Origin: Botryllus schlosseri
Lineage: Eukaryota
Reading direction: 5' to 3'
Length of the DNA stretch: 64,000 nt
Assembly: GCA_051294905.1 (NCBI GenBank)
Contig: CM119371.1
Coordinates: 10,480,001-10,544,000 of the forward strand
Shown here: positions 7,223 through 58,553 of the stretch, in pieces
Layout of the letters: every line of letters begins with the position of its first letter
How positions within the stretch are numbered: the first letter of the stretch is position 1
Position numbers and translations under genes: made by a program
The notes under the pieces: model-generated
The model's database searches: none
What the model was told of the DNA's origin: nothing
Seen by the model: the letters and a program-made list of their open reading frames with translations, nothing else

Positions 7223-7398
7223 GTACATAAGTTGACTTCCCCCGTGACCGATGCTGTTATGACGTATGCGTGAATAATCCTCGTTTGTATACTCGAATAT
7301 ACTCAAATCACTCCAGCGCCCGGTTTTGCCCAGTGCCAACTATTCCCACAGTCGTAATATTCTCTATATTCAAAGTTTATTATAATCCTATCGTAGCA

Positions 7399-29561: not shown

Positions 29562-31401
29562 ATAGCTAGTTCCAAATATTTTGTGCAAAATAACCCTAGC
29601 CAACGTGACGGGAGTATTTTAACGAAGTATGGCCATCTAACAATATGACCGATTAATTTGGGATGAATTATAATAAACCACTACATTCTTGGAAACAAGT
29701 TGCAAACATTGTCGGCGCATGTTTCGCGCGTAGCGCAACGGAAAGTTCCGAGATTTGACTGATTTTTCGTGAAAAAGACAGCAGCCGCAACTGGTGGTTC
29801 GGCATCCTTCTATCTGTTGATTACATCGCATTGTACATTGTGCGTGTCTTGTTCAGATGAAACTATAATCTGACGTTTATTAATATTGATTTCTCAGGTA
29901 TTTATGAAACTTCATGCTATTCGAAATCATGAGCGCCATCTGGCCATAGCTCGGAAAGTTGTGGAGAAAATCGACACAAAATAGAACTGCGCCAGAATCG
30001 AAAACAAGCATAGCTGATGTGTGATGCGGCGAGATTTTAATTATATAACATTTGAAATATTCTACGTTGTTAGGTTTTATATCCTAATTCTATTCGATAA
30101 TGTGATGAAGTATATTATGGAGTAAACGTTTAAACAACCACCGAGTTTCATGGCGAAATCAGATCTATCTTCTATCTATCTTAGAATCTATCTTAATCGC
30201 AAATCATTACGGCTTCTGGATAATAGATAGATGTTTACAACCAGTTTTCCTGGTCTCAATTTTGCCTTCGAGAACATGCATTCGATGCAGGTCAGATGCG
30301 CGATGTTTACTATTTCTCAATGATACGCGTGAAAACTGCAATCATACTAAACATGGTCATGATTCTATGTTCGCTATTAACTTAGATAAGTTGGAGCAAG
30401 CCAGAACAGATCTTGGCTGGACTTGGATATGAGACGTAGTCGTATTCGGGTTAGTATACACGGAAATCATATATGTATTACGAAATGGCAGCAATAAAAT
30501 GATAACATATTTTAATTGGGCTAGTGCTTGACCAGTTGATACAATATCGACTGCATGCCGTAGTAGGTACGGGCATTGATTAGAACCCATGTACCGCATA
30601 TATATATATTGAAATAAAATTGGATAAAACAACCATTGCTAACTAGAAGCACGCTTGTCTACTATAAAATATTACACTTGTTTAGCATCTTGTAAATATG
30701 ACCAAAGAAACAGAATAGCCATAAAAAGGCACAACAAAAAGGGAGTCGGAAACAAGACACCGATCGCGGAGCAGAGATTATTCATCAAGACACGCACGCA
30801 AGCTGTGCTAAATATTATGAACGCAGCTCCACTTACTGTTAGAATGCAGTACGATTTTAAGCGAATGGAACTGGTCAAGTGGGCAGTTGCAGTTATTCCC
30901 GATCCGCGGTGTTTCAGACAGATCCTCAACGCAGAACGGGTGGATGTTACCGTCAGATACGACACATAAACACCAGCGATGTTGTTATAATGGAAGCTAG
31001 CTACTGAACCAGTGAAGGCTAGGATCAAGAGTGAAGAAACGCAAATTATTGTCCGTCTCGGTTTAGAATATCGATCAAGAATTTGACCAACTATAGGTCC
31101 CGCAGCAGTTTCTGTTACGATTCCAATGATAAAAAGCAACCCCACAAATTGATCATTCAAATAGGGGAATTGTTTCAAAATCAAAGAAGATATAAGGGTG
31201 GCGCCGTACGCTCTGTCAGACATCGCGAATGCGTACAGTATAACAAATATCGCGTATGGGCGATAAGTGAATAGAAATGCCACATCTTTCAGCTCTCTTT
31301 TCATGCTGTAAGTCGGTGATGTCTGCACCAAGGGAGTTTTCTCGTTTAGTGCTTGATCATTAGGTAATTCGCCATGTTCGCAAACAGGCGGCTTGTTAGA
31401 C

Positions 31402-33356
31402 CAGAGTGTACTCAAAGGTGGTGTGGACACAGAAAGAAATTCTCTCGTTCACGCTTCGCTTGGGTTGTCAAGATTGTTATTTTCGATCCGTTTTCAGTAC
31501 TGACTCAGTGCAAAAGTCGGTATTGGTATATGTCGATTTTGACGATGTTTCATATTGATTTGGGTGACAAGTTTTCGTATGGTATATCTGGATGATGTAA
31601 TCTAATACTGTACCAAGTTTCAAGGTCTTCACTTTATGATTAGGGCAGTAATTGCGTTACCGAAGTCAAGTATGCTATTGTCGATCCGTCTGAAACAGTG
31701 ATTTGACGTAAACGTAGGTATCGGTATGTGTTGATTTTGACGATGTTTTATACCGAGATGGGTCCCAAGATTTGGTATGGTATATCTTGACGATATCATG
31801 ATATCATGGAACACTGTACCAAGTTTCAAGTTTCTCACTCATGATTAGGGTGGTAATTGCCTTATTCAAATCGACTAAGTATAAGTGTGCGCGGCCTACG
31901 CATTGCCGATTTTACGCAAAACTGGCTATTGATATGTTTTGATTTTGAAGGTATTCTATACGTAGTTGGCATACAAGATTTCGTATGATATATCTTTATA
32001 TTATATCAGCTAATAATGTACCAAGATTAAAGTCTTTCACTCATTGATTAGGGTAGTAATTGCCTTACCGAATTCGACAATGCCTAGATGAGAGTCAGAC
32101 TGAAACTAGGCTACCGCATAACAGATTTTACGCAAAAGTCGCTATTGATATGTGTTAATTTTGACGGTGTTCTATACGTATTTGGGAGACAAGATTTCGT
32201 ATGGTTTACCTTCATTATGTCAGCTAACGATGTACCAAGTTTCAAGGCTATCACGCATTAGGGTATAGGGTAGTAATTGTCTTATCCGAATCGACTATGT
32301 ATAAAGGTGTGCGCTAAACTAAAATTAGGCTACCACATAGCAGATTTTACGCAAAAGTCGCTATTGATGTGTGTTGATTTTGACAGTGTTCTATACGGAG
32401 TTGGGAAACAAGATTTCGCGTGGTATATCTTGATTATATCAGCTAACGTGTCAATTTTCAAGGCTGCATTTAACGATTAGGGAAGTAATTTCGTTAGCGA
32501 TGAGTACACCCCAATCCTTGAGTTACAACCCTAAAACTTGAATCAGTGTTGGATGACATCATGAAGATATACCATGCGGACAAATGGACACCGGCCAGTG
32601 CCGGCTTTTGCGTAAATTCTGTTATGCGGTAGGCTAGATTCGAGAGGCCAGACGCTGCAGCTGCAGGTCTCTACATAAACGGTCGACTTCGATAACGAAA
32701 TTACTGCCCTAATCATGAAGTGAGGACCTTGAAACTTGGTACAGTATTAGATCACATCATCCAAATATACCATACGAAAACTTGTCACCCATATCAATAC
32801 GAAACATCGTCAAAATCGACATATAATAATACCAACTTTTGCACTGAGTCAGTACTGAAAACGGATCGAAAATAACAATCTTGACTACCCAAGTGAAGCG
32901 TGAACGAGAGAATTTCTTTCTGTGTCCACACCAGAGATTAGCGGATTTGGAATTTCTATGTCCTAATCCAATCCAAATCCGAACCTTCAAATCCAAATCC
33001 TAATCCATAACTTTTTCATATTCAAGTCCATGTCCAATCCTAATCCGATTCCAACTGGAAATTCAGAAAAAATACTAATTTATGCAATGGAGGGATTCGA
33101 AAATTTTCTTTCACAACCAACAATTCAATTGATTCAAGATAACTTAGTAACCATAAGTACATTAATAACTGATCTGAATAAAGTTTGTCGCCATTCGCCA
33201 CACGACATTTCAATCTCCCAGAAAATAGGTAAATCCGATCCAAATCCTAATCCGTTCTGAAAAAAATGTCTAATCCAAATCCGACAAAATTTCACAAATC
33301 CTGTTTTTTCAAAACCTAATCCTAATCCATGCTCATCTCTGGTCCACACCACTCTG
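31402..33356. mobile_element. Foldback-type non-autonomous DNA transposon, 7-bp TSD (P-superfamily-like)
   Basis: Ends CAGAGTG...CACTCTG; TSD GTTAGAC (31395-31401, 33357-33363); ~250-bp inverted terminal regions; internal ~200-215-bp tandem units (TGTACCAAGTTTCAAG...GATTAGGG.AGTAATTG). Confidence 0.75.
32932..33341. mobile_element. CAGAGATGAGC/ATCCAAATCC-family hAT-type MITE (410 bp)
   Basis: TIR CAGAGATTAGC...GCTCATCTCTG; perfect 8-bp TSD GTCCACAC. Near-identical inverted copy at 51013-51439. Confidence 0.9.
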
Positions 33357-36300
33357 GTTAGACACAAAGCATATTACCAAAACGCAACAAAGTAACGACA
33401 TTACCGACAATGAGCCGAATGTCGAAGCGAATACAATTCTAAATCTGCGATCAATAATTTCGGAAGTTGTTGAGAATATCGATATTTGCTGAAGCTCATA
33501 ATGGCTATACCTCATCCCCATTGCTCTCGTAGCAACCAAGTTAGACATCAAAGATGCTAGCCGCCTTGTAGTCGATGACATTGCTGTCGCTTTTCCTCTC
33601 TCATGCAAATGAAACCAATTCACGGACACTAGCTGTGCTATCGCTATTATAACTCCGGCAGCGGAGCCGGATAGAAACATCCCAGCAACTAAGAGTCCAA
33701 ATATTCTTAACAAAACTCCCATTGTAACCAGTAGAGTGGCGAATCCATTTAAGACGCAAGCTAGCAACGTGATTTGCCGAAGGCTGATCCAACCACCGAT
33801 CACGCAAATCACCACAACGCTTGAAAGTCTACCGACGAGATTGGCGATTGCTTGCAAGTCAGTCATGGCTGGATTGATTCTGAAATATCTCGACGTGATA
33901 TCGTTGACAAATGAGAAGGATCCGAAACCGAAGACATCCAATACTGTGATCAAACACACTATCAATGAAATGACCCATCTTTTCCCCACGACTCGGTGTC
34001 TTTTCCCGTCCAACAGGAACGTCTTGTTGGTTTCGGAATCACGATCACTATCTTTAGACTTCATAGCAAACACTACACCTGATGTCACTCACTCGGTTCA
34101 GTTTCAAATAATTTTCCTCAACGGCCAATGAATGTAGCAAACGAAATGTCCTATACCAAGCTACGCCAACGATGGCTTGAGCAATACGCACGAGTGGGAT
34201 CATTCGTGCCGAGACGGAAGGAAACAGGAAGAGCCGACACTATGAATATTGATTGCTGTGAAATTGGCCGATGATAGCGTAGCGATGAGCGTATGTGCCA
34301 TCTACGCAGGTTGCCCGTGTTCAAGTCCTGCCTTCTCAAGTCCCTCTGGACTTCTCGTCCCCGTGACTGCAGTTCCAACGGCTACGAAAAAGGTCAGGAA
34401 AAAAGATCCGATGAAGAAAGAGAGAAAAGAGCATTAAATAATGTATAAATTCACATACCAAGATAGATTACAATCGAAATGACTGTAACATCGGGCACCA
34501 GTCCGATGTGGGTGCTAGATTAGGAAACTACAACTTGGTCGTTTCGGAATCCTCCTATATGTTCATTGCATCGCATTATGTCTTGTCCATCGCATTGAAC
34601 ATTGTGAGTAGTCCTATGTGTCTTTGGCAGATGAAAATATAATCCGGCAATGACACTGGTCAATTTCGAAAAAAATTGCGCTAAAAATTTAATGCTTGAC
34701 TTAGGCTAATTTAAGGTTGCCAAATCCGATTCAGTGCTCAGAATTTCTCTATCGGCACGTCAGATTGTTTTCTAGATGAATTTCTCTCATTTTCATAAAT
34801 AAATCAGATTTCGGCTTTCGTTAGTGACATAACAGTAAGCATACAACAGCAACAGATCGAATGTTGTTATTGAAATCATCTATCAAGAAATGTTAGTTGT
34901 TGTAGTACAGAATGAGTGAGTGTTCGGTGAACTTGAATCCAATGATTCTTCATCTTCGTTCAATCAGAAGCTCTTATCGACCCATAAAATCGCACCGGTC
35001 AACAAATTTCAGAAATAAAATTGCACCAAGAGTTTTAATGATTAGGCTAATTTTAGGTTGCTGAATCCGATTCTGCCGTCAGAATTTTTCTAGCACGTCA
35101 AATTTTTTCGGTATGTATTTTGTTATTTTCATAAATTAATCAAATTTCGGTTTTCGTTAGTGACATCACGGTCAGCGTACAACAGCAATAGATCAAATAT
35201 TGTTATTGAGATCATCTATAATTATGAAACCCGGGTTGTTGTAGAACAAAATAACTGAGTTTTCGCTGAACTTGAATCCAGTGGTTCTCTATCTTCTTTC
35301 GCTCAGGACCTCTTTTCGGCCCATAAATTCATATGAGGATACAAATATTTTTAGTCGGTAGCAGTTATCATCTTTATATGCTACTCTTCTTATAAAGATT
35401 TCGATTAGTAACTCCGTACCTAATTTAGTTCCATACGTTATCTATCTTTATACATCCGTTCTGCAGATTTAATCGGTCAATGCATGTTGTGACAGCACAC
35501 CATTCTTTCGTAAAACGTAAAAATTTGCAAACAATAAACATTGTGTTGTTGGTATATTATGTAGAAGAGAATTGTTCACTCGCGTACATGACGCTTTAAG
35601 CTTGTGCTGAAACAATAAAAGAAACAGGCTGTCTGCTTTTCGAAAAAAAAAGTGCTTTTCATGATAACTTGAAAGAATTTATAAGCATTAATCTCCACCT
35701 GTACTTATCATGCTAATTCTTTTAACATTTTATTGGAATCGGGTAAAGCTGTTACTGAACTGTTTTTCTTTTGGTGTATTGCCATGATATAAAGGGCTTC
35801 TTTTGCATTGTCTATTATAGATAACCAGATGAATAGAGACTGCTTACTAACAGCTCAAACGAAACCTGATATGCGTGATACTTCACAATAGAAATAACTA
35901 TGCTTCGGTTCTAGGACAGTCGATCGCTCTCGACATAGGACATTCTATGGCCGACACTCAATAACACGTGTTCTATTCTGTAATAGAGCCAGAGATTAGC
36001 ATTGGTTAGCATCGAGGCTTTTTGTTAGTGTTTTGCATGATTAAACGTCAGATCTTAATACAAAAGGGGGGTTCCTGATTTGGGGGTTCCTGATTTGCCG
36101 TAACATTTTACTATGAGCTAGAGTTGGTTGAAGTGATCAGCGTTGCTACTCAAGTAACATAAGTAACGCCTATCATTTCTACTCAATTACAAGTAGAATT
36201 AGTCATTTCTAAGACATGTTAAAACTACTTCAAGTAGAAGATGAAATGGAAGGTCTGATAATAACTGAAAGTCAGTAAATATATAAGTATATATTGGTCT

Positions 36301-39300
36301 GGGGAGGGTGGTCGTATACCTTCAAAACGTAGTGGAGGTGGCTGCATACGAAATTGCAAGATGCATCGCTGCATATAACGCAAAATGACTTTAATGATAC
36401 CACTCATTGGTAGAACCTTCGAAAACAATATATTCAGTTACCGTTATTCAGAGGCTATTTTACACGTTTCGTATGACAATTTACCTCATGATAGTGGTGC
36501 AATATTATCCTTGAATTACTTTCTACTTTACAAAAATCAAATTGCAAAAGTAATTAGTTCATTCAGAATACTGTTCAGGTAGAAGTTGAAGTAGTTGTAA
36601 AACATTAACACTTCAGTAAGTACTGCAAGTAGCCAAAATCTACTTGAGTACCTTAAAAAAGTAGAAATATTCAACATAAATAATATCCCAAACACGCGAC
36701 GTGATGGAACAAATATGACGTCAGATTCGTATTCAGCGACCCCAAATTAGGTATAATTCACCCAAAGAAGTCCTGGCGCAAGTAGTTAGTATGATCGGTC
36801 GCGAACTAGCGTTGTCTCTTATGGGTGCACCCGACCGGTGCCGCGAAAACTCGTCCTGAACCGGTGACCCTTTCAGACCCCCCTTCCACCCGACCGGTGC
36901 CTTATGAGTATAGGGATCTCTCGACCGGTGCCTCGAAACTCGTCTTGAACCGGTGACCCTTTTCGGTATAGGGATCACTCAACCGGTGCTAGTATAGCCA
37001 TCTCTCGACCGGTAACCCTTTTCGGTATAGGGATCACTCGACCGGTGCCGCGAAAACTTGTCTAGAACGGGTGACCCTTTTCGGTATATGCATCTCTCGA
37101 CCGGTGTTGAATATGTATCAAGTAAATAGTCATGTGACTGAATCTTTGTTAATGTGTATATCGTGAAAACTCGTGGTCGTGACTCGCCTTTTTTACTATA
37201 GGTGGTGGCGGTGATTCGCCTGCCGTGTATTCTTACGGGATCTGTGGTGACTCGCCATGTGTTTTTATGGGTGCGGTCGCATGCGGCTATTGTGTCTTAT
37301 GGGTGCGGCCGTGAATCGCCCTTTCGGTATAGGGATCGCTCACACGGTTCTACATGAAGACATCGTAGTTTAGTCGTGACAAATGACCGATCGTGTGACC
37401 AATTTGAAGTAATCCCAACGTTACGGCGAGTGCGACAATGATATATCGTTATTCTTATGGGTGCGGCGGTGATTCGTACTTTCGGGTATAGGCTGCGGGC
37501 GGAATGTCGTACTTTCAATAAAAAAGGCGTGAAAATAGTTTGCAAAATCTAGGAATTACTCGCATGGTAATGTTTGGGTAATTAGATTACCACAGAGCCG
37601 GCGTAGACGGCGATTCGAATATCAACAATAACAACGGTCACAAATTAACACTTCAAATAGGTGTGAAATAGTTTGCAAAACCACGCGATCGCTGACAAGA
37701 TATTGTCTCGGACATAACCATCTTTAGCGACTTGGTGTTACAGGCATATCGATCACTCACGCGGTGAAATTTTCGTAAGCAGTTTGGCACAGAACTTGAT
37801 TTCACTCGTAAGATTTAATAAGTAACGAATAACAGACCGCCAGTGTCGGTAACTTGAATAGCGACAAATTGTCACTTATTTCCGCTCTAACCCTAATCCT
37901 TTGTGAAGTGAACGCTTATTCAAAAAGGTGTGAAATAATTTTAAAATCCAACGACCACTCACCGGATAATGCTTCAGACATAGCGATCGCTCATGATTTG
38001 GTGTTACAGACATACCGATCGTTCACAAGGTAATATTTCCGCAATAAGTTTGTCACAGAGCCGTCGCAGACGGTGATTCGAAAACCAACAATTTGACACT
38101 TTCTGGAAGTCGCTATATGTTTTGGCACTTCGGAACAGTGAGTGACTTTAGTTGTATGATAAGAATCATGAAAATATTCAAGCAATGTATCAATTTGTCA
38201 ACTTGAAATGTAACTTACTACACAACTCAAGTTGATTCTTATCTGAATGTGTTAATTTGGCACAACTCTAATTCTTTTGAGAAATCCTAATAACGCGATC
38301 TGTTGAATCGAACGTAACCTGAATATTACTGACGCCGACTTTCAGCCACATCAAATTATTTGCACATTCCGAGTCGCTGTTTCACGCATATAGAATCAAT
38401 ACCAACTAGCTCAATGAGAATCAGGAATCACAAGTATACACACACAATAATTATATTTAATACTGAGAAATCAAACGCTTAACAAAAACACGCAACTAAT
38501 CATTTACCAACTCTAGCATTACCAAAAAAAATTCAGGCATTGTTAATTGAAAATCCTTGAATCCTTATTATCAAAAAATGTTATAGTGCGGTGTCGGAGT
38601 CCATTCGCGGGGTGTACTAAAGGTAAATCCAAATAATCCAGAATGAAATATTTGGACTTTGACATTGCGTGAATTGAAATATGTTGGACAAACATGACTA
38701 CCAATTTTCACCCAGTCACATTTCGAGATTATACGCACATTGATTTGAAACAAGTAATGAAACATTACAACTCTATTCGCGACCTGTCTTTACGTTTGTC
38801 AAAGAGAATTTCAGTAATTACTATCGCGATATTTTAATGTGTTACTACTCACAATAGAATCAATCAATGAAATATCGCCAATTGTTGTAAACATTTCCAA
38901 CTTGACAACCGCTTGCACATAACACGATCGAGTTGCAATGCGATGAGTTGAATCGGAATATTTCAACCTACTTTGTCATATCGCGATTTGAAGTAGGATT
39001 GCCAGACAGGCTGGGTAAACTTTAACTCCACTGCGTTTCAGATTAATTTATTCACACGATCATCATCTCGCTGTCTTCACACTTACACAATCGCGTGCTG
39101 TTACCACTCGCAACTTCGGTACGATATTTCAACTTGTCACAATAACTGATTATTCACATGTTGATTTGAAACAAAAGAAGCCTTGAACAAGTTATCTGGG
39201 TATTTTTTTGTCACAATTGAGTTAATGGAAATAGTATTACACCTCGAAATTTTAACATCTCACCATACTCAAAAGAGTCAATCATAAAGACCTTGTCAAG

Positions 39301-40929
39301 TAAATCCGTTTGTAACTTGGCCATCCAACTAGACAGTACCCGTACAGAAAGAAGACAAGATTACGCGAGTACATACAATCGCTACAATCTAAAATCCATA
39401 GCAAGTTCGGTTGTAGTCATAGTCCGCCAACTCGTATTTTTTGTTCAACTGTAAAAGTCGTTACTATTCTGTAAGATAAAGTAATTACTACTCGGTATAT
39501 TTTATAAACCAAAGTAAGTACTACTCGGTGTGAGGTTTCAGATTAACATATTACATTTGAGTATACGAGATTTGAATGTCTGACCAACGTAGTTGAGAAT
39601 TCTTACAATCGAACGCAGGTGTTATATTGAAAATTTTCACGATGTAAACATATGAATTGACACATTGATTTTGACATATGAGATTTTGTAATAGTCGATC
39701 ATGACTTGATTATTAAATTATGACATTATTAGACCTGCGTTGTGTTGAAGGTTATTACGATACCAACAAACTTTTCAGAAACATTGTTATTAACATATCG
39801 ATTTGTGAAACTAGATTAACATGTCTGAAATGTTTTGATTGGTAAGATTAAGCCGTGTTCGTAAAAACCACACAGCGTATTGTGGATATCAAGAAATATT
39901 TTACAAATGTAATTGTCTCCAGTAACCAAGACTAAAGATGAAACAACAATTTCCTTTGTTGAACAATAACCGGTACAATACTTTATCATCGTAATCTGCG
40001 GTGAGAATTGAAACACTTTCGCACATTACCCGGTGTCAAGATATCACACTGGGTGAATTGACATACCGCCGCTTGATTAATACCTAATCCGTTCGCACCA
40101 TTTCACCTACTTTGATCATTACAAAAGTAAATTGGAATATGTTTGCTAGATGCATTCAATTCAGTTAGAAATGTCTGGTGCACAACAATCGTAATATCAA
40201 GGAAGTACTTGCTACACTGTAATTCACTTAACATGTTTTGCATTGTTGTTCATTTGTAGTATTGATTGAAATTGTTTTTGAACCCCCAAATATTAATTCC
40301 CGACATGAAACCAAGCCACTGAAAGTCGTTACCATCACAACGAAACAATTTGTACGATGTTTGCCAAAATGTATCCTATAGTTAGGTGTACTAGAATTAT
40401 TTGTCTAACACATACACCGACAATGCAATCGAAAATTTTTCCGTTGTCATTCGCTAAAGTAAATGTCATCACAATACTCTGTCACTGAAAGACGTTACTT
40501 GTATGTGATTGAATCCCTAACAATAAACCCACTAAACCGAACTCCAAATAAATTTGACTCACTCGACGGATATGAAACAGCGTCGCTTAATCGGTCTATA
40601 TCGTTTTTCTAAAGGTAAATCATATCCAATAGAAAACAATTTTCACAAGCTTGGTAATGAAACCGAAGTCTTTATTCAATATTTTGTTTGTGTCAAATAC
40701 TTTGCAATAAACACACTGGAGTGGTTGAGCTTTACATCATCAGACTGTCATCTGTAAATCAAGCTTACATCCGATTTGTAACTGTATTGTTTACCTAACC
40801 GAGTTGTATGCACAGTTTGATATTTTTGTCATTCAGGGAGTGCAAATCCTTTTCACACTCGTAATAGTATACCAACAGCTACCGGCGACAACGTTTAACA
40901 ATACCAACAACACTAAACATACGATACCT

Positions 40930-41580
40930 ACCCAAGTAAAATTACCATTTCCACCTGGAGGTCAACCGTTACCTGAGTAAAAATACCATTGTCCTTTGGA
41001 GATTTATCGTTTACTCAGAGTAACAATACATTTCACTTGGGGGTCTATCGTTTCCCTGGGTAACAAACCTTTTTCACTTGGAAATATATTTTTTCTCTGG
41101 GTAACAAACCTTTTTCACTTGGAAATATATTTTTTTCCCTGATCAACAAACCATTTTCACTTGGAAATATATTTTTTACCACAGCAACAAACCATTTTCA
41201 CTTGGAAATATATTTTTTCCCTGAGCAACAAACCATTTTCACTTGGCGGTCCGTCGTTTACCTGAGTAAAAACATCACTTTCCTTTGGAGATCTATCGTT
41301 TATCCGGAGTAACAATACATTTTCACTTTGGGTTCTATCCTTTCCTAGAGTAACAAAACCCTTGTCGTTTGCAAATCTATTTTCTCCTACAACAACAAAC
41401 CATTTTCACTTGGAAAAATACTTTTACCTAGAGTAACTAATCATTTTCTTTCGGAAATATATTTTCTCTTGGGTAACAAACCCTTTTCGTTTGGAAAACT
41501 ATCATTTACCTGAGTACCAATACTGTTTTCACTTGGAAATCTTTTTTTTTCCTGGGTAACAATAGCATTTTCGTTTTGAA
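40930..41580. repeat. ~40-bp minisatellite in the left arm (mirror at ~44040-44690)
   Basis: Recurring unit approximately AACAAACCATTTTCACTTGGAAATATATTTTTTCCCTGAG, roughly 15 diverged copies. Confidence 0.85.
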
Positions 41581-41686
41581 AACTGACAACCACACCGGAA
41601 AATTTGATATTTTTGTATATTGTTACAACGGGCAGTGACAAAATATACACCAACAACGACTCCGATACATTTGTCTAATCAAATAT

Positions 41687-41935
41687 TCACTGGCTCTGAT
41701 GCATCCCATCAAAATCATTGGTTACTCGCATGCAATAACAATGTGCTGTTGTACATCGACATGTATGTTTTCGGAATTGGCGAATAAAGGGGTTTTCGAT
41801 ATGACCGTGATGTCCGGGTTCGTGCTTTGGATTTTCCAGAGTCAAAATGTCTGAATAAAACACCTCCTCGACTTTGGTAACTGGTTGGTACACGGATAAT
41901 GATGTTCGGAAAACGGATGAAATTATGTTCCCCAT
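41687..41935 (-). CDS. Hypothetical 82-aa protein, left-arm copy (MGNxxS start, Cys/His-rich C-terminus)
   Basis: ATG-initiated; differs from the right-arm copy at one residue (L/S). Confidence 0.4.
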   Translation of the reverse strand: MGNIISSVFRTSLSVYQPVTKVEEVFYSDILTLENPKHEPGHHGHIENPFIRQFRKHTCRCTTAHCYCMRVTNDFDGMHQSQ

Positions 41936-42974
41936 CGCGCGAACAACTACGGGTTACTTGCGGGTTTCCTCAGGTCTGTTTACTATATTGTGTCTTTACT
42001 GGGCAATACATATCGCTCCAGTCAGCTGAAACCGGATACCTAATATGAGAAAGTGTGTGGGCCGGATATTCACTCATGAACCAACGACCAATATTCAAGT
42101 AAACATGTTACAGACCGTGTTTTGTCTCCATGAAAAATACCAATGCATACACCATCACATCAAGTACGTCACGATTGTTCATACATACCAAGTATTCGCG
42201 TAAACGAGGTGTACATACAATGTGTCGGTGTACAAACATCATGGAAAACAAATTCATGTTCTCAAGTCTCATCATGCGACGACTCTGTACATTCAATGTG
42301 GGCAGAGATGACTTGGAGACAGGCAAGCAGCCATATTTGGACGTAACACGGTCTTAGTATGAACCGACCTCCACCCAACTTGTGAAAAATGAATCTCACA
42401 TGAGTACAGCCCTTTCACGGGTTCACACCTTGATTTTGCAAGATTGTTCAGATTCTCAGGTAGACTTACATCGTGATCCAGAGCTCAACATATAGTAAAA
42501 TCGGGTTGCCTAGTTCAATTACTCACCCAATCCTCGCGTATTCTTGGTCATAACCTGTGAACTTTTTTGCTGAGACCACAGTGATTCACCTGGTTTAATG
42601 TATTTGGCGATCATCATCGTTATCAATCTTTCACGCGATGAGTATGTCGGATGTCGCTACTCCCACATAACGACTTCAGCTAAACATCGTGAGCAGTGAC
42701 TCCGGATTGAAATCGTAAACGGAGATTATGTGTATGTGTGAATCTCGAGTTCAATCACGATTTGATAATGTAATCCAAGGTGTGTCTCTGCGGGTTGAAG
42801 ACTGATTTCGTGTTAACCTCTCCGCAAGAGGGTGCTGTCTCGTAATTCTACATGTCGTTATAAAACACGGTTGGAAACTTTTGTTCTAGTTGATCCAGCT
42901 ACGTATTGAAACGGTTCACCCACGCAGACCACTGAGAAAACGTTGTCGTTACCTGACTATATCCACGAGTAAAT

Positions 42975-43250
42975 ATGGGACTACGCGTAACGTTCCATAG
43001 ATTCCTCTGGCCCCACACCGTGGTTTTACGACACAGACAAGATGCAGCGGTGGAAATATTGAAAATGAAAAACGATACCTTGGTGACATTTGATTTGGAT
43101 TTTACACCTGATGAACCATACACTCGATTGGTACATTGGGATGACAACTCTATCGTCGAGGTCGAGGGAAAAGAAATGTACAGATTTGTTGGTGTTGTGG
43201 CTATTCAGCGAAAATCAGGGTATATGGTTGTGTATGGTTCGCATATTTGA
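42975..43250 (+). CDS. Hypothetical 91-aa protein in the unique spacer of the palindrome
   Basis: ATG in a TAAATATG context with TATAAAA ~115 bp upstream; globular-protein-like composition; no family recognised. Confidence 0.45.
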   Translation: MGLRVTFHRFLWPHTVVLRHRQDAAVEILKMKNDTLVTFDLDFTPDEPYTRLVHWDDNSIVEVEGKEMYRFVGVVAIQRKSGYMVVYGSHI

Positions 43251-43266
43251 CTGAGAATATATCGGT

Positions 43267-43506
43267 ATGCATAATGCACTGTCCATTGTATCATGTCGTG
43301 TGTCATCTCTGCCCACATTGAATGTACAGAGTCGTCGCATGATGAGACTTGAGAACATGAATTTGTTTTCCATGATGTTTGTACACCGACACATTGTATG
43401 TACACCTCGTTTACGCGAATACTTGGTATGTATGAACAATCGTGACGTACTTGATGTGATGGTGTATGCATTGGTATTTTTCATGGAGACAAAACACGGT
43501 CTGTAA
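43267..43506 (+). CDS. Hypothetical 79-aa ORF crossing the spacer/right-arm boundary
   Basis: ATG 16 bp after the previous stop. The left-arm mirror lacks this ATG and N-terminus. Confidence 0.3.
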   Translation: MHNALSIVSCRVSSLPTLNVQSRRMMRLENMNLFSMMFVHRHIVCTPRLREYLVCMNNRDVLDVMVYALVFFMETKHGL

Positions 43507-43678
43507 CATGTTTACTTGAATATTGGTCGTTGGTTCATGAGTGAATATACGGCCCACACACTTTCTCATATTAGGTATCCGGTTTCAGCTGACTGGAGCG
43601 ATATGTATTGCCCGGTAAAGACACAATATAGTAAACAGACCTGAGGAAACCCGCAAGTAACCCGGAGTTGTTCGCGCG

Positions 43679-43927
43679 ATGGGGAACATAATTTCATCCG
43701 TTTTCCGAACATCATTATCCGTGTACCAACCAGTTACCAAAGTCGAGGAGGTGTTTTATTCAGACATTTCGACTCTGGAAAATCCAAAGCACGAACCCGG
43801 ACATCACGGTCATATCGAAAACCCCTTTATTCGCCAATTCCGAAAACATACATGTCGATGTACAACAGCACATTGTTATTGCATGCGAGTAACCAATGAT
43901 TTTGATGGGATGCATCAGAGCCAGTGA
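43679..43927 (+). CDS. Hypothetical 82-aa protein, right-arm copy
   Basis: MGNIISS... with HGH and HTCRCTTAHCYC clusters; co-oriented with the two upstream small ORFs. Confidence 0.4.
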   Translation: MGNIISSVFRTSLSVYQPVTKVEEVFYSDISTLENPKHEPGHHGHIENPFIRQFRKHTCRCTTAHCYCMRVTNDFDGMHQSQ

Positions 43928-46268
43928 ATATTTGATTAGACAAATGTATCGGAGTCGTTGTTGGTGTATATTTTGTCACTGCCCGTTGTAACGATATACA
44001 AAAATATCAAATTGTCCGGTGTGGTTGTCAGTTTTCAAAACGAAAATGATATTGTTACCTAGGAAAAAAAAAAAGATTTCCAAGTGAAAACAGTATTGAT
44101 ACTCAGGTAAATGATAGTTTTCCAAACGAAAAGGGTTTGTTACCCAAGAGAAAATATATTTCCAAAAGAAAATCATTAGTTACTCTAGGTAAAAGTATTT
44201 TTCCAAGTGAAAATGGTTTGTTGTTGTAGGAGAAAATAGATTTGCAAACGACAAGAGTTTTGTTACTCTAGGAAAGGATAGAACCCAAAGTGAAAATGTA
44301 TTGTTACTCTGGATAAACGATAGATCTCCAAAGGAAAGTGATGTTTTTACTCAGGTAAACGACGGACCGCCAAGTGAAAATGGTTTGTTGCTCAGGGAAA
44401 AAATATATTTCCAAGTGAAAATGGTTTGTTGCTGAGGTAAAAAATATATTTCCAAGTGAAAATGGTTTGTTGATCAGGGAAAAAAATATATTTCCAAGTG
44501 AAAAAGGTTTGTTACCCAGAGAAAAAATATATTTCCAAGTGAAAAAGGTTTGTTACCCAGGGAAACGATAGACCCCCAAGTGAAATGTATTGTTACTCTG
44601 AGTAAACAATAAATCTCCAAAGGACAATGGTATTTTTACTCAGGTAACGGTTGACCTCCAGGTGGAAATGGTAATTTTACTTGGGTAGGTATCGTATGTT
44701 TAGTGTTGTTGGTATTGTTAAACGTTGTCGCCGGTAGCTGTTGGTATACTATTACGAGTGTGAAAAGGATTTGCACTCCCTGAATGACAAAAATATCAAA
44801 CTGTGCATACAACTCGGTTAGGTAAACAATACAGTTACAAATCAGATGTAAGCTTGATTTACAGATGACAGTCTGATGATGTAAAGCTCAACCACTCCAG
44901 TGTGTTTATTGCAAAGTATTTGACACAAACAAAATATTGAATAAAGACTTCGGTTTCATTACCAAGCTTGTGAAAATTGTTTTCTATTGGATATGATCTA
45001 CCTTTAGAAAAACGATATAGACCGATTAAGCGACGCTGTTTCATATCCGTCGAGTGAGTCAAATTTATTTGGAGTTCGGTTTAGTGGGTTTATTGTTAGG
45101 GATTCAATCACATACAAGTAACGTCTTTTAGTGACAGAGTATTGTGATGACATTTACTTTAGCGAATGACAACGGAAAAATTTTCGATTGCATTGTCGGT
45201 GTATGTGTTAGACAAATAATTCTAGTACACCTAACTATAGGATACATTTTGGCAAACATCGTACAAATTGTTTCAGTGGCTTGGTTTCATGTCGGGAATT
45301 ATTATTTGGGGGTTCAAAAACAATTTCAATCAATACTACAAATGAACAACAATGCAAAACATGTTAAGTGAATTACAGTGTAGCAAGTACTTCCTTGATA
45401 TTACGATTGTTGTGCACCAGACATTTCTAACTGAATTGAATGCATCTAGCAAACATATTCCAATTTACTTTTGTAATGATCAAAGTAGGTGAAATGGTGC
45501 GAACGGATTAGGTATTAATCAAGCGGCGGTATGTCAATTCACCCAGTGTGATATCTTGACACCGGGTAATGTGCGAAAGTGTTTCAATTCTCACCGCAGA
45601 TTACGATGATAAAGTATTGTACCGGTTATTGTTCAACAAAGGAAATTGTTGTTTCATCTTTAGTCTTGGTTACTGGAGACAATTACATTTGTAAAATATT
45701 TCTTGATATCCACAATACGCTGTGTGGTTTTTACGAACACGGCTTAATCTTACCAATCAAAACATTTCAGACATGTTAATCTAGTTTCACAAATCGATAT
45801 GTTAATAACAATGTTTCTGAAAAGTTTGTTGGTATCGTAATAACCTTCAACACAACGCAGGTCTAATAATGTCATAATTTAATAATCAAGTCATGATCGA
45901 CTATTACAAAATCTCATATGTCAAAATCAATGTGTCAATTCATATGTTTACATCGTGAAAATTTTCAATATAACACCTGCGTTCGATTGTAAGAATTCTC
46001 AACTACGTTGGTCAGACATTCAAATCTCGTATACTCAAATGTAATATGTTAATCTGAAACCTCACACCGAGTAGTACTTACTTTGGTTTATAAAATATAC
46101 CGAGTAGTAATTACTTTATCTTACAGAATAGTAACGACTTTTACAGTTGAACAAAAAATACGAGTTGGCGGACTATGACTACAACCGAACTTGCTATGGA
46201 TTTTAGATTGTAGCGATTGTATGTACTCGCGTAATCTTGTCTTCTTTCTGTACGGGTACTGTCTAGTT

Positions 46269-47464
46269 CAGAGGTCTCAAACACGCGGCCCGCGGGCCGC
46301 ATGTGGCCCGCCAGAGCATTTCGTGCGGCCCGCGAAGACATTTTAGATTTTTAATAATTTGAAAATATTTTAGTGTCACATATATCTTTTCAGGTTATAA
46401 AGTCGAAATCCCCTCTTAAATTGCCTCAAAAGCCTGAACTATTCATCGAACTTCGCTATCACATCAATTGCAAACGCTACCATGCAGTGGAAGATTCAAT
46501 ATTTCGCCACATTTCCAATTCATGATGACGAAACCTGACCCTTAGACGATTCGTGACTAAAATTTGTGAGTTGGACTTGCACGCGACCTTTCTTAGAAAT
46601 ACTCAGACTCGCAAAATGAAAATGACTCGAGTGGACTCGGAGTGACTCGGTATGTCGTGAATTTGTTAGAACCTTGAACGCAACAAACTAATCGCGTATC
46701 GGGAGAATAGCAATGGATCAGAAGGTCGCAGCTTTGTATTTCGCTAACTAAGCAAGTAGTTATAGCAACCGTTGGAAATCTGTCAGTTACATCTTTGGTC
46801 GCTAAACCATGTTACTAAGGCCACGTACAGGTACCGAGTACCGCAGTGGTACGCCCCAAGGATGTAACAACAATGGGCCGTTCGGCGTTCCGACATTTCA
46901 ATCACTAGGACACATTCAATAATATATTTATATTATATTTATATTTGTTTCTGCTCCTATATTTGAAGATATTTGGCCAAGAGATTAATAGCCTACTTAG
47001 CAGAAGTATACCCGAAACCTGGATTGGAATTACAATGCTAAACCTGACAATGTTTTGATATCAGATCAGTCTCTATTATCAATCTGTTAAATTCAAAATA
47101 TTCATAGTACCTGCAAAATTATAACCCGATAACTTTCATGATGGCATCATACATATGTCCGCCCATATGATGTCAATATGTTATAATAAATATATATCAA
47201 GTACAACAACAACTCTATTCAAGTAGTTATAAATGTGATGATTCTTTTCTTGCCAGGCCTAAATTTACACAAGAGTATATCACATTTTGACGATGTGTGT
47301 TTACTGATAGTCTGCTGGATCGGCTCACTTTCAATAGGACAATTAATTCCCGCCAAATAAGGCCTATTCGGAAAGACATAGAATACCCCTATAAATGCTG
47401 CGGCCCGCGGCGTCGTCAAAACGTGAAAACTGGCCCGCAAGCACATTTGAGTTTGAGACCTCTG
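46269..47464. mobile_element. hAT (Charlie-like) MITE present only in the right arm
   Basis: Perfect TIR CAGAGGTCTCAAAC...GTTTGAGACCTCTG; perfect 8-bp TSD GTCTAGTT. The left arm shows the single-copy empty site at ~39327-39334. Confidence 0.93.
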
Positions 47465-50400
47465 GTCTAGTTGGATGGCCAAGTTACAAACGGATTTACT
47501 TGACAAGGTCTTTATGATTGACTCTTTTGAGTATGGTGAGATGTTAAAATTTCGAGGTGTAATACTATTTCCATTAACTCAATTGTGACAAAAAAATACC
47601 CAGATAACTTGTTCAAGGCTTCTTTTGTTTCAAATCAACATGTGAATAATCAGTTATTGTGACAAGTTGAATATCGTACCGAAGTTGCGAGTGGTAACAG
47701 CACGCGATTGTGTAAGTGTGAAGACAGCGAGATGATGATCGTGTGAATAAATTAATCTGAAACGCAGTGGAGTTAAAGTTTACCCAGCCTGTCTGGCAAT
47801 CCTACTTCAAATCGCGATATGACAAAGTAGGTTGAAATATTCCGATTCAACTCATCGCATTGCAACTCGATCGTGTTATGTGCAAGCGGTTGTCAAGTTG
47901 GAAATGTTTACAACAATTGGCGATATTTCATTGATTGATTCTATTGTGAGTAGTAACACATTAAAATATCGCGATAGTAATTACTGAAATTCTCTTTGAC
48001 AAACGTAAAGACAGGTCGCGAATAGAGTTGTAATGTTTCATTACTTGTTTCAAATCAATGTGCGTATAATCTCGAAATGTGACTGGGTGAAAATTGGTAG
48101 TCATGTTTGTCCAACATATTTCAATTCACGCAATGTCAAAGTCCAAATATTTCATTCTGGATTATTTGGATTTACCTTTAGTACACCCCGCGAATGGACT
48201 CCGACACCGCACTATAACATTTTTTGATAATAAGGATTCAAGGATTTTCAATTAACAATGCCTGAATTTTTTTTTGGTAATGCTACAGTTGGTAAATGAT
48301 TAGTTGCGTGTTTTTGTTAAGCGTTTGATTTCTCAGTATTAAATATAATTATTGTGTGTGTATACTTGTGATTCCTGATTCTCATTGAGCTAGTTGGTAT
48401 TGATTCTATATGCGTGAAACAGCGACTCGGAATGTGCGAATAATTTGATGTGGCTGAAAGTCGGCGTCAGTAATATTCAGGTTACGTTCGATTCAACAGA
48501 TCGCGTTATTAGGATTTCTCAAAAGAATTAGAGTTGTGCCAAATTAACACATTCAGATAAGAATCAACTTGAGTTGTGTAGTAAGTTACATTTCAAGTTG
48601 ACAAATTGATACATTGCTTGAATATTTTCATGATTCTTATCATACAACTAAAGTCACTCACTGTTCCGAAGTGCCAAAACATATAGCGACTTCCAGAAAG
48701 TGTCAAATTGTTGGTTTTCGAATCACCGTCTGCGACGGCTCTGTCACAAACTTATTGCGGAAATATTACCTTGTGAACGATCGGTATGTCTGTAACACCA
48801 AATCATGAGCGATCGCTATGTCTGAAGCATTATCCGGTGAGTGGTCGTTGGATTTTAAAATTATTTCACACCTTTTTGAATAAGCGTTCACTTCACAAAG
48901 GATTAGGGTTAGAGCGGAAATAAGTGACAATTTGTCGCTATTCAAGTTACCGACACTGGCGGTCTGTTATTCGTTACTTATTAAATCTTACGAGTGAAAT
49001 CAAGTTCTGTGCCAAACTGCTTACGAAAATTTCACCGCGTGAGTGATCGATATGCCTGTAACACCAAGTCGCTAAAGATGGTTATGTCCGAGACATTATC
49101 TTGTCAGCGATCGCGTGGTTTTGCAAACTATTTCACACCTATTTGAAGTGTTAATTTGTGACCGTTGTTATTGTTGATATTCGAATCGCCGTCTACGCCG
49201 GCTCTGTGGTAATCTAATTACCCAAACATTACCATGCGAGTAATTCCTAGATTTTGCAAACTATTTTCACGCCTTTTTTATTGAAAGTACGACATTCCGC
49301 CCGCAGCCTATACCCGAAAGTACGAATCACCGCCGCACCCATAAGAATAACGATATATCATTGTCGCACTCGCCGTAAACGTTGGGATTACTTCAAATTG
49401 GTCACACGATCGGTCATTTGTCACGACTAAACTACGATGTCTTCATGTAGAACCGTGTGAGCGATCCCTATACCGAAAGGGCGATTCACGGCCGCACCCA
49501 TAAGACACAATAGCCGCATGCGACCGCACCCATAAGACGCAATAGCCGCTCGCCACCCCCGCCATAAGACGCAATAGCCGCATGCGACCGCACCCATAAA
49601 AACACATGGCGAGTCACCACAGATCCCGTAAGAATACACGGCAGGCGAATCACCGCCACCACCTATAGTAAAAAAGGCGAGTCACGACCACGAGTTTTCA
49701 CGATATACACATTAACAAAGATTCATTCACATGACTATTTACTTGATACATATTCAACACCGGTCGAGAGATGCATATACCGAAAAGGGTCACCGGTTCA
49801 AGACGAGTTTTCGCGGCACCGGTCGAGTGATCCCTATACCGAAAAGGGTCACCGGTTCAAGACGAGTTTCGAGGCACCGGTCGAGAGATCCCTATACTCA
49901 TAAGGCACCGGTCGGGTGGAAGGGGGGTCTGAAAGGGTCACCGGTTCAGGACGAGTTTTCGCGGCACCGGTCGGGTGCACCCATAAGAGACAACGCTAGT
50001 TCGCGACCGATCATACTAACTACTGGCGCAAAAATCGTGTAGACCAGTTTGATTTAATTCCTTTTCCGAATTTTCGATTAATATTATTGATAATGCAACT
50101 AATGGTAATAATTGACAGCATGAGAAACATAAGACTCACTGCTATCCGCTATGATTCATTGATTCACCTAAAATCAATATGGTCATGAATCATCAATTGT
50201 GGTGAATATTTTTATGCAGCTTTCGAGGTATACAATTCACTACTATATTCATATTGAACTAAACCGGAATATATTTTGCTGACATTATAGTCACGGGTAA
50301 TCGTCAGCAACTAGTAAAGAATTGGAAAGAACATTGTATATCTACAATCGTATCACAAAATATGACGTCACCAGCATGAAATGAAATCTCGAATAAGAGA

Positions 50401-50490
50401 GCGTTGAATATACTATTTTAAGAGGCTACATGAAATCCTTTGTAGACAAAGCTTGAGCAAAATGAATTCGTGTACCATCTTGGCTTGGAT

Positions 50491-51644
50491 AGGGGGCGGC
50501 CAACCCGTGGTCCGCGAGAAGGTTTTGAGTGACCCGCGAGGTAATTGTCGAAATTAGTCATATTATCAAAATGAATTTCCCAGATTTTGATTTTGCAAGG
50601 TTAACCAAATATCAGATTAGCCTGGCCGCAACACTTGGGATGTTAATTATTAAAATATTAGTTTCGACGAATCGGGAGATTCGGGGGCCTGTCACAATTT
50701 TGACAGAACTTCGTATATACCAATGAAGTAAAATAGCTTGCAGTAGATTCTTTTAGAGTGGAATTTTTCTTCAAGCGTCGCGCGATATGTTGTCACTCGA
50801 TTTCCTGCTTTTAATATTGGTACGCCCTCTTAAAAACGAGAAAGCACGCATAATTGATCAGATTGAGTCTCATTATATTCGAAATTTCGAGAGAAAGTGT
50901 TGTCCAATATGCGACGTCGTGTGTGGGCTCGTAGAAAGATCGTATACGATGAAACCTGAGCGCAAAATGATTCACACATGTTGGCTGAAACCTTTGATAT
51001 CGATATGTCCAGCAGAGATGAGCATGGATTAGGATTAGGTTTTGAAAAAACAGGATTTGTGAAATTTTGTCGGATTTGGATTGGATTTGGATTGGACATT
51101 TTTTTCAGAACGGATTAGGATTTGGATTGGATTTACCTATTTTCTGGGAGATTGAGATGTTGTGTGGCGAATGGCGACAAACTTTATTCAGATCAGTTAT
51201 TAATGTACTTATGGATACTAAGTTATCTTGAATCAAGTAAATCGTTGGTTGTGAAAGAAAATTTTCGAATCCCTCCATTGCATAAATTAGCATTTTTTCT
51301 GAATTTCCAGATGGAATCGGATTAGGATTGGACATGGACTTGAATATGAAAAAGTTATGGATTAGGATTTGGATTTTGATTTGAAGGTTCGGATTTGGAT
51401 TGGATTAGGACATAGAAATTTCAAATCCGCTCATCTCTGATGTCCAGGCGTCGAATAGTCCTGTCCTTGCGCATTGAACCCAGCGGTATACAGTAAACCC
51501 ACAATATACTCAAATAACTAAATTGTTACCTGTAATTCATTTACAAACCTTGCGAAAAAATTTAGCGCTTCCTGCGGCTGGTGGCCCGTGTAATGGTTCG
51601 TCACGGACATGTGGACCTTTGGCTAAAAAGGTTGGACACCCCTG
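50491..51644. mobile_element. hAT (Charlie-like) non-autonomous element
   Basis: Ends AGGGGGCGGCCAACC...GGTTGGACACCCCTG; TSD GCTT(G/A)GAT; paralogous empty site near 58338. Confidence 0.7.
51013..51439. mobile_element. CAGAGATGAGC-family MITE nested in 50491-51644
   Basis: Perfect TIR CAGAGATGAGC...GCTCATCTCTG; perfect 8-bp TSD ATGTCCAG. Confidence 0.92.
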
Positions 51645-55362: not shown

Positions 55363-57890
55363 TCAGACTTGTTTAGCATCTTGTAAATATGTCCAAATAA
55401 ACAGAATAGCCATAAGAAAGCACAACAAAAAGGGAATCGGAAACAAGACACAGATCGCGGAGCCGAAATTTTCCATCAAGACATGCACGCAAGCTGTGCT
55501 CAATAATATGACGACAGCTCCACCTGCCGTCAGAATGCTATACGATTTTAAGCGAATGGAACTGCACAGGTTCGCAGTTATTCCCGATCCGCGGTGTTTC
55601 AGACAAATCATCAACGCAGAACGTGTGAATGATAACATTAGATACCACACAGAAACACTAGCGATGTTGTTACAGTGGAAGCAAGCTACTGAACCAGTGA
55701 AAGCTAGGATGAGCAATGAAGAAACGCAAATTATTGTCAGTCTCGGTTTGTAAAATTTATCAAGAATTTGACCAACCATAGGCCTTGCAGCAGTTGCGGT
55801 TACGATTCCAATGATAAACAGCAACCCCACAAGCTGATCATTTAAATATGAAAATTCTTTCAATATCAAAGAAGATATAAGCGTGACGCCGTATGCTTTG
55901 TGGATCATCGTGAAAGCGCACACGATAAAAAATATCGCGTATGGGCGATAGGAGAATAGAAATGCGACGTCTTTCATCTCTATATTCACGCCGTGAGACG
56001 GCGATGTCTGCAGCTGCACTAAAGGCGTATTTTCGTTTCGTGCTGGATCATTATTTATCTCGCTGTGCTCGCAAACAGGCGGCTTGTCAGACACGAAGCA
56101 TATTACTAAAACGCAACAAAATAAGGACATTATCGACAATGAACCGAATGTCGAAGCCAAAACTATCTTAAATCTGTTATTAATATTTTCAGAAGTAGTA
56201 GAGAATATCGATGTTTGCTCAAGCTGTTGATGGCTATAGGGCAGGGGTCTCCAACACGCGGCCCGCGAGGTCCTATTTTGCGGCCCGCGACCTGATTTGA
56301 ACAAATTTCAGAAAAACGCTTAGTAAATCATTTTTAAACGCTGAAAATTATTTCAATTGAAACATAATGTTGTTGTTGTTTGAAGTAAGCCATTACACTG
56401 TGCCCAATATCACTATTCCTTACTAGTTGATACGGCTTCGACATGGTAATATCATTCCATGGATGAAGAATTTGCTGGTACGAATGGGCATAATATTGCC
56501 TTGACGTGCAATGGCCCACCACTGCCAAGACCGAGACGCGTGAAAAACGACTTCGGGCTCTCCAAAAGACCATGCTTTACGAGGAGATAGTTGTTTAGCA
56601 AGTAGGCCTACCGTGTCTGGCTAATCCAAATATTGATTCTTTAATCCAGGGGTGGCCAATCTGCGGTAGTAGAAGGGAAATTATGCGGCTGTCGACACTT
56701 TTGATAACAACCCTACGTTTTCTAAGATACCCCCTGCATCAGCTCTATCGGTGAATCTGATCACATTGGCCGGGAAAGGATAAATATTTTATAGTAATAT
56801 GTGAAACCATACGAATATTGACGAAATTCACTAATAAACATGAAAAATTTTTCGCGCTTCGCGCGACTACAGACCGGGGTGTCCTGTGGCTATTACAACA
56901 TAACTACTAACGATTTCGGTCCGCATAGTAAGCCGATGTGCATAAATTGATTAGTTCGGAGTGTACCGACAATGGACATGGACAGTTTACCGTGGGCATT
57001 TGGCCCCAGCTAGTTTATCACGACTATAACAACCGGTATGCGGCCGCAGGCTACATGAGTAATCGAAAAGCGGCCATGAAGAGCAAACATGTGGGCCACC
57101 CCTGTTTTAGCGGCTACAGAGTGTCAGGTATCGTGTACAGCTCATAGTTCAAAATATAACGAAATTGGAAATTGATGATCATGATACTTTTGTTGTATTT
57201 GTCTTTGTTCAATAAAATATTATTTCTTTTGTGGTGACTATAACCGTCGCCCATGTTAGAGAGCACAGCATTGTAATAACGAAGAGTTATCAGATGTGGT
57301 TGCTGAACTGCTTTGCCTACTTTTATATCGATATTGATGTCCTGCGGCCCGCGGCATCTCGGCATTCGGAAAAGTGGCCCGCGACCCATTTTGAGTTGGC
57401 GACCCCTGCTATAGGGATTCCCCATTGCTCTCGTAGCAACCAAGTTGGACATCAAAGAGGCTAACCGCCTTGTAGCCGATGACATTGCTGTCGCTTTTCC
57501 TCTTGCATGCAAAGGAAACCAATTCACGGACACTAGCTGTGCTATCGGTATTATAATTCCGGCGGCGTTACCGGATAGAAACATCCCAGTAACTAAGACT
57601 CCAAATATTCTTGACAGAACTCCAATTGTTATCAATAGAGTGGCGCATACGTTTAAGACGCAGGCTAGCAAAGTGATTTGCCGAAGGCTGATCCAACCAC
57701 CGATCACGCAAATGACAACAACGCTAGTCAGTCTACCGACGAGATTGGCGATTACTTGTAAGTCGGTCATGGCTGGATCGATTCCGAAATACATCGAAGT
57801 GATATCGTTGACAAAGGAGAATGATCCGAAACTGGAGACATCCAATACGGTGATGAAACACACTATCGATAAAATGCTCCAGCTGTTCCA
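55363..57890 (-). pseudogene. MFS transporter (SLC49-like) copy 3, split by a hAT MITE and lacking the paralogous start region
   Basis: ORF halves 57114-57917 and 55363-56304 join in frame at PYS (the TSD). Motif SVNWFPLHARGKATAM. About 0.4 kb containing the ATG of copies 1 and 2 is missing. Confidence 0.82.
56242..57408. mobile_element. hAT (Charlie-like) MITE with a probable older nested element (~56647-57104)
   Basis: TIR CAGGGGTCTCCAAC...GTTGGCGACCCCTG; perfect 8-bp TSD CTATAGGG. Confidence 0.88.
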
Positions 57891-58553
57891 CGAACGAAGA
57901 ACGAGAGAAAAGTGCAAAAAATTATGTCTGCTGTAATGACCGAGGAATACAGTTCAACATCGCCAGACTGTGACATTGGGCACTATGCCGAGGTGGATGC
58001 ATAGATTAAGAGACCAGAACTTATGGTCGTTTCGTTATCCTCCTCGCTGTTCATTGCATTGCATTGTGTCTCGTATATCGCATTGATCACTGTGTATGTG
58101 TCTGCGCAGATGGAAATATAATCCGGCGATGATCGATTATAATGCAACTAATGTTAATAATTGTATGCATGGAAAGCAAAAAACTCACTGCTATTCGCTA
58201 TGATTGATTGATTGATTTACCTTAAATCATTATGTCCAGGAATCATCAATTAAGGTAAGTATTTTTAAACAGCTATCGTAGTATCAGTCGGATGAATCTC
58301 GAAGCATTGCTAGTTGTTTTCCTTGATTTTCATTATGGCTTAGATCATGAGCATTATCTTGGGTAATTGAATGACGGAACCAGCGGTTATTATCCGCTGT
58401 GCAGCGACTGCTCAGGAGTGCAGCGAAAAAAATGAGGTAAAGCTGTTTGCCGTCGACATAAAACAATTATGAAAGGGGTACCACCTATATATATGATGTG
58501 ATATCAAATTCAAATTGGAAGTGTGAAAACAATTTTATAAACAGCCTTGTCCT

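Follow-up and report, generated by a model that had tools for sequence, protein, structure and literature searches.

How did a unique stretch of DNA come to lie between two long and nearly identical inverted arms, and do its two inner joins record the event that placed it there? The locus that raises this question lies in a window of 64,000 nucleotides of Botryllus schlosseri DNA, which is the whole stretch analysed here. An initial annotation had proposed that a polymerase switched template and copied back one end of a parent genome, in the manner of defective-interfering viruses. We find that both junctions form the centre of one 13.2-kb element (36781-50024). Its left arm (36781-42312, 5,532 bp) starts with AGTAGT, its right arm (43302-50024) ends with ACTACT, and the two enclose a loop of 989 bp (42313-43301) that has no second match anywhere in the window; the inner limits of the arms, at 42312 and 43302, had been placed correctly. 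A 6-bp target-site duplication, GGCGCA, flanks the element at 36775-36780 and 50025-50030, and its near-palindromic sequence creates an apparent start at 36776, the true ends being 36781 and 50024. The arms are 99.5% identical (27 substitutions in 5,450 aligned columns, a few indels, and a MITE insertion in the right arm), and the inverted repeat makes up 92% of the element once the MITE is excluded. In form, one terminus is doubled in reverse complement around a unique stretch.

The MITE (46269-47464, 1,196 bp) is present in the right arm only, between copies of an 8-bp target duplication, GTCTAGTT, at 46261-46268 and 47465-47472; it is presumably hAT-like, a label that we take from the length of this duplication. 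It has short inverted ends, with weak matches at 52060, 56243 and 57342, and sits within a 1.8-kb stretch of arm that carries no substitutions. The arms also contain tandem arrays of a 59-bp unit (36908-37106 on the left, 49758-49897 on the right) and of a 41-bp unit (40972-41572 and 44067-44644), and a 32-bp array lies at 49492-49599 in the right arm. Copy number is unequal between the arms for the 59-bp and 32-bp arrays, and all three kinds may be protein-binding or origin elements. An Rfam scan of the whole element gave no match, and hairpins at the junctions are weak on both sides (-5.9 to -8.8 kcal/mol, raw values without a shuffled-sequence control).

To which class does such an element belong? 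The available text of Barreat and Katzourakis (2021; PMC8097293) gives (AGT)2//(ACT)2 ends with a 6-bp target duplication as the commonest signature of vertebrate Mavericks, (AG)3//(CT)3 being the alternative ends. The signature is found here, with AGTAGT at 36781, ACTACT ending at 50024 and GGCGCA on either side, together with terminal inverted repeats in the form of the 5.5-kb arms; ends and duplication support the protein-primed, Polinton-type context that had been assumed for the locus. None of the core genes of an autonomous element (pPolB, integrase, ATPase, protease, capsid) was found within it. There is no stop-to-stop frame longer than 119 aa in 36500-50500, a Pfam search with eight frames at the junctions and in the loop gave no match, and a PHROG search with 12 small proteins of the element gave only two weak ones (E 0.06-0.08). 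From its sequence, the element is probably one integrated copy of a palindromic, non-autonomous Maverick/Polinton family. Named non-autonomous Polintons include Polinton-1N1_DR and Polinton-N1A_NV (named in PMC9341505 and PMC11296320), and Tlr1 is sometimes viewed as one. A palindromic Polinton family did not appear in the titles and abstract beginnings of the literature searched. With the named families compared by name only, a palindromic non-autonomous Polinton may already be catalogued.

The surrounding window is animal DNA rich in repeats, with methyltransferase, MFS transporter and BEL/Pao frames. Two similar MFS transporter regions on the minus strand flank the element, one per side (30672-34088 and 55363-57917); the first is split by a small inverted-repeat element whose arms (31419-31667 and 32685-32933, 95% identical) enclose a 219-bp tandem array. 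Duplicated methyltransferase genes lie 18.8 kb apart on the plus strand (7270-8256 and 26169-27026), the second as two shorter frames. A BEL/Pao LTR retrotransposon polyprotein occupies 59181-63959 on the minus strand as an open frame of 1,592 aa, and a dispersed, GGATTT-rich repeat of 430 bp occurs at 32928-33341 and 51013-51443 in opposite orientation (93% alike).

Is the palindrome peculiar to this copy? Read contigs from public sequencing runs bear on this point. The data cover four of the 24 listed runs and 24 loose ends, 426 further ones being outside view; no junction contig satisfies a bridging rule of 31 letters on both sides of the junction, and the summed contig depths given below are not copy numbers. 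In sample X14, which comes from another study and carries another organism label, a right-junction contig (43166-43331) has a depth of 27.6 and a loop contig a depth of 24.7, and an arm contig of depth 53 begins exactly at 43302, with the 30-base overlap expected of a graph branch at that base. In X6, the depths are 26.3 for the right-junction contig and 82.5 for the arm contig, and the left-arm bin reaches 46.7 without any contig that fits two places. The left junction is crossed by 21 bases in X2 by a contig that is 6% diverged (depth 197), and this join is probably shared by other family members. If a palindrome is counted as two arms and one loop, and a parent as one of each, the share of one-arm-plus-loop molecules in X14 comes to about 2 of 28 depth units, a value within noise. 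None of the 24 loose ends shown falls at 42313 or 43301. The clean target duplication, the many variant contigs and an arm depth about twice that of the loop in X6 and X14 are features of a multi-copy non-autonomous family that moves as a unit. Because architecture and inner boundary recur in other samples, the palindrome is, on this evidence, an inherited family design and not a fresh defective genome. The idea of a single defective-interfering accident is not supported, given this recurrence and the homogenisation of the arms within lineages (see below).

The same data bear on an origin independent of Mavericks, either as a foldback transposon of another superfamily or as a local inverted duplication in the host chromosome. 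The element has no Polinton gene, and it is the ends that provide the link, which leaves room for such an origin; against it stand the exact (AGT)2...(ACT)2 termini with their 6-bp duplication, and the family-wide 2:1 ratio of arm to loop depth in other samples excludes a local accident. We consider this origin very improbable.

The case for polarity between the inner joins had been built on open reading frames. An ATG at 43267 does open a 79-aa frame (43267-43506, plus strand) that crosses 43301/43302 as described, and three co-oriented frames do start on the plus strand at 42975, 43267 and 43679; they do not make up a run of genes, homologues being known for the first one only. The mirror of the 79-aa frame in the left arm is cut at 42312, as described, and lacks an ATG in the loop, yet this mirror frame (42108-42353, 81 codons) stays open for about 14 codons into the loop, as against about 16 on the right. 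Moreover, ATG-initiated frames of at least 67 aa cross both junctions, two on the left (42130-42357 and 42143-42346, both on the plus strand) and three on the right (from 43267 on the plus strand, from 43471 and 43484 on the minus strand). When random DNA was joined to the open frame of the arm, an upstream in-frame ATG was present in 28-32% of cases (20,000 trials for each of three sources). The asymmetry of the frames is at chance level and does not prove that the right join is native; more generally, short ORFs that span a junction do not show polarity.

The 79-aa ORF itself is probably a by-product rather than a gene. The protein has no homologue (searched over 43-139 aa) and no Pfam or PHROG match, and it is absent from the collection searched. 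All four long contig pieces listed that overlap the arm part of the frame by at least 74 bases carry 8-15 gap letters, in pieces that extend beyond the frame and with some gaps unplaced. Among the variants listed from read contigs are single-base indels within the frame at 43341, 43447, 43453, 43477 and 43491; a further variant lacks 7 bases at 43426-43432. We rejected it as a gene on these grounds and on the roughly 30% chance of such an ATG. The 82-aa ORF (43679-43927 on the plus strand, with a mirror at 41687-41935 on the minus strand) was also rejected: it has no homologue, and its eight listed population variants comprise five residue changes, two silent changes and one stop. The run of three ORFs reduces to one gene, because homologues are known for the ORF at 42975 only.

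That frame, which encodes 91 aa (42975-43250, plus strand), is the sole conserved gene among the three, as judged by comparison with related sequences. Full-length homologues are 98, 76 and 70% identical to it and show many conservative replacements. Among the contig pieces listed, 11 cover at least 75 bases of the gene: eight are gap-free, two have one gap and one, which lies mostly upstream, has seven; several of the pieces carry 16-22 substitutions. Two single-base deletions are listed within the gene, at about 4-6% of depth in one run, and the loop is covered in all bins in the four public runs examined. A candidate TATA box (TATAAA, 42859-42864, plus strand) may serve the gene from 116 bp upstream. 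Between the end of the gene and the right junction lie 51 bp. The plus strand holds no AATAAA or ATTAAA in 43250-44030, after the gene's stop, and therefore a canonically ended transcript would extend far beyond the junction, into the right arm. In X6 and X14, loose ends at 43011 and 43058, in frame by eye, point to a further, more remote relative of the gene in these samples. A profile search returned the gene's own cluster and one WD40-type repeat protein (E 8e-4), which we rejected as a relative, and no similar Maverick-type protein. Matches in the Atlas scored at most 0.77 or were absent, and the predicted structure, at a pLDDT of 34.6, is unusable. All six homologues of the gene come from contigs of 965-2,005 bp, most of them similar to the loop in length; this may be expected if diverged families also hold the gene in a loop between long repeats.

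Evidence on the direction comes instead from base composition. Of 312 blocks in the window, the one with the strongest purine/pyrimidine alternation is formed by the innermost 205 bp of the arm. The best-scoring alternating tract (43220-43476, or to about 43560 at a looser setting) straddles the right junction, running about 80 bp into the loop, and is truncated at the left one. On the loop side of the right junction, alternation is 0.65-0.77 over 40-120 nt (background tail 0.0006-0.003); on the loop side of the left junction it is 0.50-0.56, equal to background (tail 0.31-0.62). With an order-2 Markov model that was trained on arm sequence, the tails come to 0.0002-0.003 on the right and 0.35-0.71 on the left. 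The test is post hoc, and the loop side scored on the right includes the last part of the 91-aa gene. In the arm, the 60 bp next to the junction show background alternation (0.54), and neighbouring blocks correlate weakly in alternation (0.10 in the window, 0.27 in the arm). We also considered alternation as the cause of the scarcity of stops in the inner arm and rejected it (correlation 0.10 over 312 blocks). The read contigs of relatives disagree: one that is 10% diverged stays colinear with the element for 15 bp past 43301, and two that are 13-15% diverged lose the match at 43260 and 43292, short of the right junction. The direction claimed at the outset, with the right join (43301/43302) native and the left join (42312/42313) new, thus draws moderate support from a post hoc composition test and none from the ORF argument, and we think it fairly likely that the right junction is native.

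These observations also bear on a different view, in which the loop is of foreign or far older origin and both junctions are secondary. It would be a gene cassette captured by a near-perfect snap-back hairpin, or a segment whose two edges have eroded since the family arose, and the junctions would no longer record the origin. The chance-level ORF asymmetry fits such a history, as do the loss of the match 10-40 bp short of the right junction in diverged relatives of the loop gene, the short contigs that carry the homologues, never long gene-rich ones, and the lack of a similar protein among Maverick-type proteins. Compositional continuity across the right junction only is harder to reconcile with it, and so is the colinearity of the 10%-diverged relative past 43301; no target duplication was found flanking the loop, and repeats are commonly represented by short contigs in such collections. 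Overall, we judge a captured or eroded loop improbable.

A native right junction would identify the new join but leave its mechanism undecided, and here the history of the arms has to be weighed. At eight listed sites in 43302-43706, the arm contig of X14 has a letter that neither arm of the window copy has; at 43549, 43614 and 43993, the right arm alone departs from the common letter. The shared differences therefore indicate two lineages, each with matching arms, that differ from one another and have the same inner boundary. Within the window, the substitutions between the arms, counted from outside to inside, number 8 in the outer 1.7 kb, 0 in the next 1.8 kb, 19 in the following 1.8 kb and 0 in the inner 247 bp. 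The longest substitution-free gap is 1,780 bp (p about 0.0009 against a uniform distribution), and the spread as a whole departs from uniformity (KS p=0.003; 0.024 without the tandem arrays). A simple inward gradient of divergence was rejected (binomial p=0.05; 0.12 without the tandem arrays), the pattern being patchy instead. A single copy-back followed by even decay would not produce such patches, although assembly polishing could be their source. On these comparisons between lineages, the arms are re-copied within lineages.

Re-copying of this kind offers a route to repeat growth, and thereby brings in a parent with long inverted repeats of its own, which gave rise to the element by internal deletion or by stepwise growth of those repeats. 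A deletion that took out the core genes, with a breakpoint in the left repeat or at its edge, would produce a native right join and a new left one without a one-step copy-back, and inward growth by arm-to-arm repair would do the same. The available part of a recent preprint (bioRxiv 10.1101/2025.02.07.637071) describes butterfly polintons with gene-bearing repeats of about 2 kb, and polB-less polintons that are still mobile. The 5.5-kb arms are nevertheless far beyond the repeats of 46-1,447 bp (mean 402) given for intact vertebrate Mavericks in the text available from PMC8097293. In addition, the boundary lies at the same base in a lineage with at least eight arm-site differences, and so shows no creep. 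We regard deletion or stepwise growth as possible but rather unlikely.

The reading that we prefer, at a probability of about 0.45, is that the family was founded by duplication of one end of a parent and then spread as a unit while its arms were re-copied. A protein-primed, strand-displacing polymerase would have copied an arm and the loop and then, taking the strand it had just made as template, copied back; the loop and right arm would be the native piece, and 42312/42313 the new join. Autonomous Mavericks would since have provided the polymerase and integrase with which the whole palindrome spread. Arm-to-arm copying, through homology-guided template switching or mismatch repair in a folded single strand, would keep the arms alike in patches, and a racket-like single-strand replication of Polintons would supply the folded intermediate for this later copying. 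Copy-back by a protein-primed polymerase is the simplest founder in one step, and a plausible one by analogy with phi29 subgenomic DNA, AAV snapback genomes and the copy-back genomes of RNA viruses. A 1998 study of phi29 subgenomic DNA by Murthy and colleagues reportedly names template switching in its title. Single-strand, protein-primed and folded replication of polintons is, in the available text of PMC4196379, a model from sequence analysis, and no paper in the literature searched joins 'polinton' and 'copy-back'. A search for the parent among viral contigs (by protein and by three DNA patterns), metagenomes and prokaryote genomes gave no true relative. One protein search of the viral contigs reported a single relative without a locus. 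Three metagenome loci matched: one was rejected because the match is broken by stops and its contig carries genes that look fungal, a second repeats that match, and the third matches over 16 residues.

A more ambitious form of the copy-back reading, which we put forward tentatively and hold to be on the unlikely side, is that a copy-back defective genome of a Polinton virus settled in the germ line as a lasting parasite. A single template switch at one end would have founded it; it would have kept one selected 91-aa loop gene and would re-copy one arm onto the other during helper-driven replication. If so, the junction and the patchy arm differences would document, directly in the genome, the single-stranded panhandle replication that has long been proposed for Polintons, and defective-genome biology would come to include integrated DNA elements that are inherited. 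Because the family has many copies, consists almost wholly of stem and has a fixed loop boundary, the folded-strand model can be tested on it from genomes alone: the model makes predictions about the identity of the new join, the distribution of arm differences and the free molecules to expect.

How does the element compare with known systems? Intact vertebrate Mavericks measure 12.7-24.6 kb in the available text of PMC8097293, and a review gives, in the part available, elements of 15-25 kb with 5-10 ORFs (PMC6431247). The element resembles the former in its (AGT)2//(ACT)2 ends, 6-bp target duplication, terminal inverted repeats and size; it differs in that no core gene was detected, in repeats of 5.5 kb versus 46-1,447 bp, and in being a 92% palindrome. 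With the polB-less polintons of the preprint (10.1101/2025.02.07.637071, as far as its available text goes) it shares mobility without a polymerase of its own, and some polintons carry gene-bearing repeats of about 2 kb; those elements, unlike this one, retain most core genes or a capsid gene. Phage phi29 is a protein-primed, strand-displacing system that yields subgenomic molecules of 1-8 kb, mainly from the right end and ascribed to template switching (PMC4974454, in its available text). The molecules drawn mainly from one end are the point of likeness, whereas phi29 is a bacteriophage and not integrated, and that part of the source does not state whether its molecules are palindromic. A further comparison is with the copy-back genomes of RNA viruses (PMC13506859) and the snapback genomes of AAV (PMC8235507), in which, as far as the available texts describe them, one end is likewise duplicated in reverse complement, replication signals stand at both ends and a helper is needed. 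In shape, the element falls between copy-back genomes, with their short stem, and snap-back genomes, which have no loop. Those genomes are transient and belong mostly to RNA viruses or AAV, whereas here the same form is found in integrated, inherited DNA with a fixed boundary and a conserved loop gene.
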